Shown piece after piece: positions 17,768-21,100 of a stretch of DNA of 64,000 bases. Below the pieces are notes generated by a model that saw only the letters and a list, made by a program, of their open reading frames with translations, searched no databases and was not told the DNA's origin. The translations under genes were made by a program, and so were the position numbers. The stretch's first letter is position 1, and each line of letters begins with the position of its first letter. The stretch comes from an uncultured Pseudomonadota bacterium (GTDB lineage Bacteria > Pseudomonadota > Alphaproteobacteria > RF32 > CAG-239), in contig CADAJN010000003.1 in assembly GCA_902788365.1 (NCBI GenBank), positions 58,656 through 122,655 of the forward strand, written 5' to 3'.

Positions 17768-18196
17768 AAAAACCTCAGATAATGAGCTTAATACGAAGAA
17801 AGTTTTCTCACGCGGTGTAAACAATAGCTACATAAGCGAGAAAACTTTCAAGTAGATACCAGCTCATTCAAGCTGTAAACCTCGGATAATGTGTCAGATG
17901 CGACGGAAGTCTGTTGGCGACGTGTAGATAAAGCTACATAAGCGAGAAAACTTTTATTAAATAACCACCTATCAGTTCAAGGTTAAAACCTCGGATAATG
18001 AGCTTAATACGAAGAAAGTTTTCTCACGCGGTGTAGATAATACTACATAAGTGAGAAAACTTTCAAGTAGATACCAACTCATTCAAGCTGTAAACCTCGG
18101 ATAATGTGTCAGATGCGACGGAAGTCTGTTGGCGACGTGTAGATAAGGCTACATAAGCCAACAGACTTCCTAGCAGATGACCATTAGACGAGATTT
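17768..18196. repeat. Cluster A of palindromic extragenic elements (4 units of about 105 bp; REP/RPE-like)
   Basis: Units begin AAACCTCGGATAATG and end ACAAGTAGATACCAGCT(AGACGAG). Central hairpin GTGTAGATAAnGCTACA. Units 1/3 and 2/4 are pairwise near-identical. Confidence 0.85.
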
Positions 18197-18197
18197 C

Positions 18198-21100
18198 TTA
18201 TGCTTCCGGCTCATCACCAGCGGCAGCCAAAGCCTTCTGCTCTTGCGCTTGTTGCTTCATCTCCATGATTTCTTTATCATTTTGAGCAGCCACACGACGC
18301 AAAGCACGCAAAACGTTACCTGTTCCGGCCGGAATCAGACGACCAACAATCACGTTTTCTTTAAGACCGCGCAAATCGTCAACTTTACCTTCAACCGCCG
18401 CTTCAGTCAACACGCGAGTTGTTTCTTGGAACGATGCGGCTGAAATGAACGACTTGGTCTGCAAGCTGGCCTTTGTAATACCCAGCAGAACCGGATCGGC
18501 TGTTGCAGTTTGTCCGCCTTCTTTGAACGTTTTTTCGTTTTCAGCTTCAAAGACATCGCGGTCAACCTGTTCGCCCACCAAGAATGTCGTATCGCCGGCC
18601 GAAGTAATTTCAACCTTTTTCAGCATTTGCGAAACCACAACTTCAATGTGCTTATCGTTGATGTTCACACCTTGCAGGCGATACACGGCTTGCACTTCTT
18701 GCACTAAGTATTCGGCCAATTTTTCCACGCCTAACACGCGCAAAATATCATGCGGTGCCGGTGTGCCGTCAACCAGCAAATCACCCTTTTTAACTTGGTC
18801 GCCGTCTTGAACCACCAAGCGACGTCCCTTCGGAATAAGGTATTCCACCGGATTGCCTTCGGCCGGAATAACCGTAATACGTTGTTTTGCCTTATAGTCT
18901 TTGCCGAATTCCACCATACCGTCAATATCGGCAATAATTGCCGGATCTTTCGGACGACGGGCTTCAAACAGCTCGGCCACACGCGGCAAACCACCGGTAA
19001 TATCTTTTGTTTTGGTGCTTTCCACCGGAATACGAGCAATAATATCACCGACTTTGATTTCATCACCGTTATCAACGTTCAACACTGCGTCCGGAGACAG
19101 ATAATAACGAACTTCCTTATCCGTGCCGTCATAGGTGACCGGCTTACCTTTAGCGTCTTTCAGCGTAATGCTCGGCTTCAAGCTGGCATTTGCCGTCGGA
19201 CCGGATTGCCAGTCAATCACCGTCTTTGAGCTGATACCGGTTGTTTCATCAATTGATTCTTTAACCGAAACGTTTTGAATGAGATCAATCAGTTGAGCCT
19301 TACCGGCTTTTTCCGAAATCACCGGATTCATGAACGGGTCCCACTCGGCAATCTTCTGTCCTTTGGTCACTTCCGCGCCTTCGTTAACCAAAACTTTGGC
19401 GCCATACGGCACATGGTGACGCGACTTTTCACGCCCTTGGTTGTCGGCAATCACAATATCGCAGTTACGCGATAAAATAATCAAATGACCATCCGAATTG
19501 GTAACTGTATGACCGTTCTCTAACTTCAAAATACCGGCAAACGGCACTTCAATGTTTGATTGTTCGGCCGATTTAGAAGCCGCACCACCGATGTGGAAGG
19601 TTCTAAGTGTTAACTGTGTGCCCGGTTCACCAATGGATTGAGCCGCAATCACGCCCACAGCTTCACCGATGCTGACCGGTGTTCCTCTGGCCAAGTCACG
19701 ACCGTAACAAGCGGCGCAAACACCGTGTTCGCTTTCGCAAGTCAATACCGAACGAATTTTAACCTGTTCAACACCGGCTTTTTCAACCACTGCCACATCG
19801 TCTTCGTCAATCAATTTACCTTTATGAACAAGAACTTCGCCGGTTTCCGGATTCAAAATATCTTCTTGTGCCGTGCGGCCTAAAATACGCTCGCCGATAG
19901 AGGCAATAACGTTACCGCCGTCAACTACCGGACGCACGATAATACCACGTTCAGTGCCACAATCGGTTTCGTTAATCACCACATCTTGTCCCACGTCAAC
20001 CAAACGACGTGTTAAGTAACCGGCGTTTGCCGTTTTCAAAGCCGTATCGGCCAAACCTTTACGCGCACCGTGGGTTGAGTTAAAGTATTCCGACACTGTC
20101 AAACCTTCTTTAAAGTTTGAAATAATCGGTTGCTCAATAATTTCGCCCGACGGCTTAGCCATCAAGCCGCGCATACCGGCCAACTGACGCATTTGTGCCG
20201 CACTACCGCGGGCGCCCGAGTCAGCCATCATAAATACCGAGTTATAAACACCGTGATCCGGCTTAGAAATGTTTTTCATCATCTCATCGGCAACTTTATC
20301 GGTGCAAGATGCCCAAATATCAACCACTTTGTTGTATTTTTCGCCCTTGGTAATCAAACCATTTTGATATTGCTGTTCAAATTCCTTCACTTGCGCTGAA
20401 GTTTCATCAATCAACTTTTGTTTTGCAGCCGGCACAATCAAATCATCTTTACCAAACGAAATGCCCGACAAACATGCATATTTATAACCGAGGCTCATAA
20501 TGCGATCGGCCATGATACAAGTTTCTTTACCGCCGCAAACACGATAAACTTCATCAATAATTTGCGAAATTTGCTTTTTCTTCACCAAACGGTTCACAAG
20601 TGCAAACGGCACGCCTTCGTGCTTCGGCAAAACTTCGGAAACAATCAAACGACCCGGTGTGGTGTCCACAATGCCTTTGGTCCATTTGCCGTCTTCACCC
20701 ACATATTCCATACGGCATTTAATGCGTGCATGCAAATCAACCGCTTTGGCGTTCAAAGCCAGCATACATTCTTCCGGATTGGCATAAATACTGCCCTCAC
20801 CGGTCATGTCTTCCGCATCATAGGTTAAGTAATAAATACCGAGCACCATATCTTGCGACGGCACAATAATCGGCTTACCCGAAGCCGGCGATAACACGTT
20901 GTTTGATGACATCATCAAAATACGTGCTTCCAATTGTGCTTCAATAGAAAGCGGCACGTGAACAGCCATTTGGTCACCGTCAAAGTCGGCGTTGAAAGCC
21001 GTGCAGGCCAACGGGTGCAAGTGAATGGCTTTACCTTCTACCAACACCGGCTCATAGGCTTGAATACCCAAGCGGTGCAACGTCGGAGCACGGTTCAAAA

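Follow-up and report, generated by a model that had tools for sequence, protein, structure and literature searches.

A palindromic repeat family set in one polarity at stop codons in uncultured gut Alphaproteobacteria

A family of palindromic repeats was found at the 3' ends of genes in a stretch of 64,000 nucleotides (nt) from an uncultured alphaproteobacterium of the lineage RF32, CAG-239 (contig CADAJN010000003.1, positions 58,656 to 122,655), which is referred to as the window. Eleven repeat units, imperfect palindromes of ~106-110 nt which all align with each other, are assembled into five head-to-tail arrays, every one of them on the + strand. The arrays adjoin the stop codons of five minus-strand genes, namely rpoC, ettA, kdsB, a gene for a cyclophilin-type peptidyl-prolyl isomerase (PPIase) and a gene for a GcrA-like protein (gcrA), and the names of these neighbours were checked with NCBIfam. 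The copies were counted over the whole window with an nhmmer profile built from the aligned units and with a covariance model, and the nhmmer extents were 17766-18197 (4 units), 26810-27149 (3 units) and 33464-33676 (2 units), along with single units at 43013-43126 and 48189-48296. The individual features are as follows.

17766-18196, + strand: array 1, downstream of rpoC, four head-to-tail units, matched by nhmmer, alignment and the covariance model
18088-18196, + strand: stop-proximal unit of array 1, complete
17981-18089, 17873-17973 and 17766-17874, + strand: other units of array 1, stop-facing ends degenerate
18197-18200, - strand: rpoC stop codon TAA (18198-18200) and a single spacer base (18197); the TAA-G-terminus junction is also found in strain L129
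26810-27149, + strand: array 2, three units between ettA and the start of rpoB
27015-27149, + strand: proximal unit of array 2, a long variant of 131 nt, with the ettA stop codon TAA (27136-27138) inside its terminus
26900-27008 and 26810-26900 (truncated), + strand: other units of array 2
33464-33676, + strand: array 3, two units downstream of kdsB
33569-33676, + strand: proximal unit of array 3, lacking the stop-facing terminus, with the kdsB stop codon TAG (33631-33633) inside the unit
43013-43124, + strand: single complete unit at the PPIase gene, flush with its TAA (43125-43127)
48189-48294, + strand: single complete unit at the GcrA-like gene, flush with its TAA (48295-48297)

The orientation of the units is well defined despite their palindromy, because the covariance model scores 50-70 bits lower on the reverse strand at the same sites. 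The model revealed neither further units nor a reverse-arranged copy in the window, and ~335 kilobases (kb) of DNA from the clade likewise yielded none with the reverse arrangement. An earlier note on this DNA had placed the arrays at the stops of these same five genes in one orientation, and its coordinates proved correct; its motif, searched with 3 mismatches, occurs 4 times in the window against an expectation of 0.00.

Read in the direction of the gene, the PPIase and gcrA junctions consist of TAA followed by AAACCTCGTCTAGCTGG with a gap of 0 nt, exactly as had been described. At rpoC, the stop codon, a single G and the variant terminus AAATCTCGTCTAATGG succeed one another (TAA G AAATCTCGTCTAATGG), leaving a gap of 1 nt, and the same G is present in L129. 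The ettA reading frame closes within the terminus itself (AAG AAA CTC GTC TAA, last residues KKLV), which bears out the earlier assignment of that TAA. In strain L127 the kdsB junction reads ...ATC AAA TAA A and then the terminus AAACCTCGTCTAGCTGG (also written AAACCTCG and AAAACCTCGTCTAGCTGG); compared with this strain, kdsB of the window has lost 15 nt (TAAAAAACCTCGTCT) together with the stop codon and the terminus, so that KdsB gains 11 residues and ends at a new TAG (33631-33633) inside the unit. The stop codon that the note had seen within the unit is thus real, but the comparison with L127 marks the junction as derived rather than original. The PPIase gene of strain L004 has likewise been lengthened by a second, independent junction deletion of 15 nt. 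The further claim of an identical register at all five loci does not hold, since the gap is 0 nt at PPIase and gcrA and 1 nt at rpoC, while the stop lies inside the terminus at ettA and the terminus is missing at kdsB; the formula of a stop codon always followed by AAACCTCGTCTAGCTGGT is literally true at two loci and fails at the other three.

The survey was extended to nine other strains encoding an identical GcrA-like protein, to one scan each of a genome collection and a metagenome collection, and to loci reached via GcrA homologues. The window protein is identical to MBR1903949.1 ('Alphaproteobacteria bacterium'), and related elements were encountered in Hadza and other gut metagenome-assembled genomes labelled Alphaproteobacteria. 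Besides the window species, the lineages of L026, L044, L064, L066, L105, L123 and L148 carry the element, and none was seen in the sampled stretches of the L121, L146 and L150 lineages. The genome-collection scan with a 17-mer returned mostly chance matches, of which 7 real loci were kept after an nhmmer filter. Altogether, strains, related species and metagenomes yielded ~19 distinct loci, including rpoC, ettA, kdsB, PPIase, gcrA, uvrB, mnmE, rlmE, a KH-domain gene, an nfeD-like gene, pfkB, relA/spoT, fabH, holA, holC, cvpA, trmB, a histidine kinase gene and one site that is not a gene end. The same polarity is shared by 18 of the ~19, mostly at 0-4 nt from the stop codon, and the random arrangement that the earlier note had named as the contrary outcome of such a survey was not seen among these sampled strains, species and metagenomes. 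Six loci have a gap of 0 nt, six one of 1-2 nt, three one of 4-8 nt and three one of 36-50 nt, and at five the unit overlaps the stop codon or its terminus supplies it; these classes add up to more than 18 because orthologous loci of different species, whose gaps may differ, were counted separately. A gap of 0-8 nt or an overlap with the stop was observed at 15 of the ~19 loci, and the spacer looks repeat-derived at the three with 36-50 nt.

If insertions fell evenly over the intergenic DNA of the window outside the elements (~6.1 kb), each event would have a probability of about 0.011 of landing, correctly oriented, no more than 1 nt from a stop codon. Chance placement is excluded, in agreement with the earlier statement on the five loci of the window and with the loci beyond it.

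The exceptional site is found in L142 (1815-1927), between the divergent mnmE and lexA and 75 nt upstream of the lexA start, which indicates that a stop codon is not an absolute requirement. This array ends just upstream of a lexA promoter-like sequence (1927-2010), TTGACA...TAATAT, overlapping GAAC-N7-GAAC, a motif that resembles the alphaproteobacterial SOS box. No match to the two-terminus pattern was obtained in viral contigs, and there is thus no sign of carriage by phages.

The ownership of the stop codon was addressed with orthologues that lack the element. Only the window ettA, rlmE of L138 and holA of L044 take their stop from the terminus, and these three loci end in ...CTC GTC TAA. 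Elsewhere the stop codon is TAA, TAG (gcrA in L119, fabH in L064) or TGA (PPIase in L123 and L148, uvrB, mnmE and holC) and belongs to the gene itself. The empty gcrA orthologues of L121, L123, L146, L148 and L150 stop at the same codon as the element-bearing gcrA, the protein ending in ...AYVKATRK in the window and in ...AYVKATKK, ...ASKK, ...ANKR, ...ANRR or ...ATKR at the five empty sites; similarly, PPIase ends in ...VIADI at the same codon both with the element and without it (L150). These varied stops at the codon used by the empty orthologues indicate that the terminus does not generally supply the TAA. Targeted insertion with a terminus that furnishes the stop, the first explanation offered by the earlier note, accordingly applies to three loci and fails at the others, where the gene keeps its own stop, although nucleotide-exact placement still calls for some site preference.

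The comparison with element-free orthologues, which the same note had proposed, located the stop codon at gcrA and PPIase in this way but disclosed no target duplication of a consistent kind. Near and far array ends, inspected by eye under TA and TAA models, gave no consistent target-site duplication: a TA duplication is compatible with the far ends of the rpoC, kdsB, gcrA and L052 arrays and fails at PPIase, L105, L066 and L123. No obvious shared motif follows the stop codon at the empty gcrA and PPIase sites. Furthermore, no empty site polymorphic within the species was found in look-ups with other window proteins, which gave only one other long contig. Partial duplicated termini are present in L026 and L044.

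The ettA locus offers a clue. The L064 EttA protein, 93% identical, ends in ...TAT AAA AAA CTC GAA CGC TGA (KKLER and stop), followed by a classical terminator, and a native near-copy of the terminus, TAAAAAACTCG, falls exactly where the window element is joined. This correspondence points either to the choice of a terminus-like target or to a later microhomology deletion. In the window (26591-28812), rpoB is the next gene downstream of ettA, and the array separates the two; ettA of L064 has different downstream neighbours, and array 2 thus sits at a synteny breakpoint. A tyrosine integrase gene was noticed directly downstream of the element-free gcrA in L121 and L122.

Structurally, each unit measures 105-111 nt, or 131-156 nt in the long variants, and folds as one imperfect rod hairpin of ~36-42 pairs (~50 base pairs, bp), with fold z-scores of single units on the + strand from -3.8 to -9.8 and a free energy of the gene-strand hairpin from -21 to -56 kcal/mol. 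The inverted ends follow the scheme T-A(3-6)-C(C)TCG...CGAG(G)-T(3-6)-A and read AAACCTCGGATA[AG][TC]G... and ...CTAGACGAGGTTT, without a conserved GTAG head. The conserved part covers ~30 nt per end, and the interior is wholly different between unit types yet self-complementary. RNAalifold predicted 36 pairs for 34 units from many loci, 22 of them displaying compensatory double changes; the apical pair is C-G in 18 of these units and G-C in 16. Beside the outer stem lies a 2x2 internal loop that takes the form of a conserved tandem G·A on the + strand, and a side hairpin of 4 bp, GCGTGATTACGC, is confined to the B-type left end. Searches of Rfam returned only 5 tRNAs at the gathering threshold in the window and nothing at an E-value of 5 or below over array 1. 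A role of the element as coding sequence was rejected, its frame relative to the stop varying between loci.

Arrays hold 1-4 head-to-tail units and are themselves polar. Of 44 distinct arrays, 42 have a proximal unit whose stop-facing terminus is retained; among 42 non-proximal units, 14 have the stop-facing terminus and 40 the far terminus. Some of the units classed as truncated are long-type variants with a different stop-facing half; genuine half-units (L026, L066, L134) and units with a recurring linker, TACAATTTTG for example, also belong to this class. In ten strains whose upstream 3 kb are 99.3-100% identical, 8 different gcrA-oprB spacers of 206-535 nt were counted, and unit types are swapped between the gcrA and PPIase loci among strains; change in the arrays greatly outpaces change in the flanking DNA. 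Over 20 kb around gcrA in the nine other strains, elements occupy the same two loci in every strain with variable contents, which indicates that units are renewed at fixed addresses.

Additional small GC-rich palindrome families, for instance GTCATGCCTCCGCGCTTTGCGCGG..AGGCAT and TTACCCGCGTAGGCGGGTAA, lie beside or inside the arrays and compose mosaics that resemble bacterial interspersed mosaic elements (BIMEs), as seen at window ~33400-33450, L142 ~1690-1730, L001 10418-10968 and L131 5357-5408. Between the rpoC array and tRNA-Gly, a stretch of ~640 nt (window 17124-17765) is missing in L129 (1846-2017), in which tRNA-Gly is inverted relative to rpoC; this stretch includes a small minus-strand open reading frame (ORF) of helix-turn-helix character (~17292-17519) and two terminators.

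The distribution of the elements is complementary to that of canonical terminators, which constitutes the main support for a role as 3' hairpin or terminator. Empty sites possess a classical terminator 7-50 nt after the stop, and so do the window neighbours oprB (17 nt past the stop) and a 149-amino-acid ORF (13 nt past). Terminator scans of the window found no canonical terminator before the next gene or promoter for ettA, kdsB, PPIase and gcrA. The U-run on the gene strand comprises 3-8 nt depending on locus and species, where T-run statistics, collected by regular expression over all loci and contaminated by unrelated contigs, serve for qualitative use only. Intrinsic bidirectional terminators share with the element an A-tract, stem and T-tract at the gene end; they differ from it in a stem of 5-15 bp as against ~50 bp with internal loops, and the element has an often short U-run, begins within the ribosome footprint and belongs to a dispersed repeat family.

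The reading adopted here, as a tentative first choice, is a non-autonomous palindromic repeat family of the kind formed by BIMEs and by REPINs, the hairpin doublets of repetitive extragenic palindromes (REPs), confined to a clade of uncultured gut Alphaproteobacteria and established in the terminator niche. The complete stop-proximal unit would serve as the 3' hairpin of the gene, acting as terminator or attenuator and as protector of the 3' end. With a hairpin that starts inside the ribosome footprint, translation termination may be modulated in the manner of E. coli REPs located 15 nt or less from the stop. Recombination or reinsertion at the conserved stop-proximal terminus would renew the arrays, by which older decapitated units are pushed downstream, and candidate enzymes are a REP-associated tyrosine transposase (RAYT) of the HUH type or another recombinase acting on single-stranded hairpin DNA.

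REPINs have been characterized by variable spacers that form hairpins, by flanking A/T runs interpreted as co-opted terminators, by tandem arrays and by distributions that differ among close strains (PMC3337134, PMC3116915). According to Liang 2015, as quoted in PMC12306157 and PMC5082802, a large share of E. coli REPs lie 15 nt or less from the stop codon and stall ribosomes. The present element resembles the REPINs and REP-BIMEs as a hairpin doublet of ~100 nt with two conserved inverted ends, a variable spacer that nevertheless folds, A- and T-run flanks, head-to-tail tandem arrays, an extragenic position at gene 3' ends and a strain-variable repertoire; as with the stop-proximal REPs of E. 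coli, its hairpin begins close to the termination codon. In contrast, it has no sequence similarity to them, its ends do not have the form of short GC-rich palindromes headed by a GTAG-type motif, the units of an array all point the same way instead of alternating, and no RAYT turned up in the window ORFs or at the loci sampled. Moreover, REPIN doublets are reported to be spread roughly at random over extragenic space (PMC3337134), whereas the element is nucleotide-exact after the stop with near-absolute polarity. The near-absolute polarity, nucleotide-exact placement and polar arrays are new relative to known REP-like repeats, and no known bacterial repeat family obeys a positional rule nearly as strict.

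Several observations weigh against the REPIN-like reading in the terminator niche. Neither RAYT nor any other transposase or recombinase was recognized with Pfam and NCBIfam among the window ORFs and the ORFs beside elements in sampled loci, and the termini lack both the GTAG-type head and the short self-palindromic shape of REPs. This reading gives no mechanistic account of a first element base 0-2 nt after the stop. At rpoC a canonical terminator does exist ~190 nt past the array, and ~30 nt past it in L129; in the window species, the gene-strand U-run behind a unit often has no more than 3-4 nt, and a simple terminator consensus scan does not pick up the units. A terminator hairpin flush with the stop codon is reported to undergo repression by the terminating ribosome (PMC4824070).

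The strand asymmetry of the element is a further difficulty. Counted on fixed consensus pairs in 20 representatives of <90% identity, G·U pairs number 32 on the antisense strand against 10 on the gene strand, and purine-purine mismatches 23 against 10; over all units the G·U count is 49 versus 16. Single-sequence minimum-energy folds give the opposite sign for G·U (64 versus 100), and the fixed-pair count is trusted over them, the strand inference from G·U being only suggestive. In addition, purines predominate on the element's antisense strand (GC skew +0.14, AT skew +0.21, compared with a GC skew of -0.17 for the flanking + strand), which folds more stably in 44 of 51 units. Such asymmetry does not fit a simple mRNA 3' hairpin and keeps alive the readings based on antisense RNA and on single-stranded DNA. 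The second explanation of the earlier note, a 3'-untranslated-region hairpin kept in fixed polarity by selection, is plausible in that bearer genes lack a nearby canonical terminator, but the non-Watson-Crick positions favour folding of the antisense strand. Each of its two explanations is thus partly right, and neither is sufficient.

An unlikely alternative is a purely selfish element inserted on one strand by a hairpin-specific single-stranded-DNA enzyme (HUH/RAYT-, IS200/IS605- or integrase-like), the orientation being dictated by the strand of replication or transcription and the position next to the stop being the favoured target or the sole one that is tolerated, such as a T-A(n) tract or a sequence resembling the terminus. 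Such insertion agrees with the absence of target-site duplication, with an element that is palindromic throughout and strand-asymmetric in its non-Watson-Crick positions, and with the single orientation of all copies on a contig. Bearer genes mostly belong to the coding strand that prevails locally (14 of 19 loci at 0.6 or above), and element orientation could be linked to replication, as tandem REP arrays of P. fluorescens SBW25 flip between replichores (PMC3116915); a counter-example is the element after pfkB of L026, a gene in local minority orientation. The terminus mimic at the ettA junction, the partial duplicated termini of L026 and L044 and the copy upstream of lexA, where no stop codon is involved, are also in its favour. 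On the other hand, the G·T-tolerant strand would be the leading-strand and transcribed template for co-directional genes, which is not normally exposed as single-stranded DNA, and the empty sites show no obvious common motif after the stop. Intergenic T-A(n) tracts are common, yet only the lexA-upstream locus is away from a stop, and no such enzyme was recognized in the window ORFs or at the sampled loci.

It is rather improbable that an RNA of the antisense strand is the functional product, either as a convergent small RNA or hairpin array whose terminator (the outer stem plus UUUUUA) ends at the stop codon of the neighbour, or as a terminator that keeps antisense transcription out of the gene. 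The G·U and purine-purine positions, the conserved tandem G·A and the A-rich loops are all found on the antisense strand, which is purine-rich against the local skew and the more stable in most units; only the last unit of an array on this strand has the 3' terminus, succeeded by T-rich sequence, and a perfect TATAAT occurs on it ~15 nt upstream of the PPIase unit. Nevertheless, no consistent promoter was located upstream of the arrays, the Rfam search gave no match even at that permissive E-value, and the U-run depends on the stop codon of the neighbour, being short with TAG or TGA. T-runs after units are longer on the gene strand in several species, and the strand asymmetry could be mutational or reside at the DNA level.

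Still less credible is a classical miniature inverted-repeat transposable element (MITE) derived from an insertion sequence (IS), which enters at TA or TAA and has the stop codon rebuilt from its terminal A residues, as in the first option of the earlier note. It is true that T-A(n)-CCTCG stands at both termini, that a TA duplication suits the far ends of four arrays and that the TAA inside the terminus serves as stop at three loci. However, the TA model breaks down at the four other sites named above, flush TAG and TGA stops exist, and a symmetric inverted terminal repeat would randomise orientation, whereas all 18 of 18 stop-adjacent loci share one polarity. Moreover, no parent IS with these termini was detected when terminus pairs 0.5-3.5 kb apart and enclosing an ORF were sought in the ~335 kb of clade DNA. 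Families such as ERIC/IRU, Correia (Neisseria), RPE (Rickettsia) and QMITE (Coxiella) are 100-150 nt in length, carry inverted repeats at their ends and are found alongside transcription units, and palindromic MITE-like repeats occasionally give C-terminal residues or stops to neighbouring genes. The element is of similar size, has terminal inverted repeats as well and alters the ends of ettA, kdsB and PPIase (L004); it differs in having neither target-site duplication nor IS parent, in forming one hairpin over its entire length, in its fixed orientation and in its polar arrays. The comparison with these repeats rests partly on PMC5896051.

A long shot of a similar order is a hairpin-DNA insertion or recombination system, so far undescribed, that would seek out the nucleotides immediately past a stop codon, each new unit decapitating the previous one and thereby generating cassette-like, polar and fast-evolving arrays. 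Such a system might recognise a T-A(n) or terminus-like sequence, or might use single-stranded DNA or an R-loop formed only where the shielding of nascent RNA by the ribosome ends.

The integron attC site invites comparison, being likewise an imperfect hairpin (60-140 nt) with conserved ends and a variable centre, arranged in arrays and placed in a single orientation where the preceding ORF ends, either immediately past its stop codon or across it, with the folding strand antisense to the ORF. The element, unlike attC, has no RYYYAAC/GTTRRRY cores, no IntI gene and no cassette ORFs, and is dispersed over housekeeping genes (rpoC, uvrB, relA and others). As the core sites are absent, the termini being GTCTAGC/GTCTAAT ... 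GCTATCC with units directly adjacent, the identification as attC was rejected.

Other repeats were noticed in the vicinity. For three tRNA genes, the 3' end and the adjacent terminator are duplicated nearby (window 30220-30516, 4973-5261 and 56792-57224), with a spacing of 184 nt for tRNA-Arg and tRNA-Val and three tandem units of 158 nt for tRNA-Thr. Two more tRNA-Thr-like 3' ends (61725-61778 and 62967-63020) are located inside a low-GC region (34-37%) at 57-64 kb, which also includes repeated blocks at 58703, 60293, 61663 and 62906; these tRNA 3'-end duplications look like att-site duplication or stacked islets. A third repeat family (window 9069-9503) is represented by three copies spaced by ~152-177 nt just downstream of tRNA-Pro (8936-9012). 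In the host relatives L123-L126 (~2400-8500), a type II CRISPR-Cas system (Cas9, Cas1, Cas2) lies upstream of the gcrA region with strain-variable gene order.

What causes REP-like repeats to collect at gene ends, and whether they are selfish or co-opted, is a long-standing question, for which this family offers an unusually clean signature. That signature makes the alternatives of a 3' hairpin, strand-specific insertion of single-stranded DNA and an antisense RNA testable in Alphaproteobacteria that are abundant in the human gut. Meanwhile, the element remodels the C-termini of EttA, KdsB and PPIase, and it is likely to be a source of assembly breaks and of strain markers in gut metagenomes.

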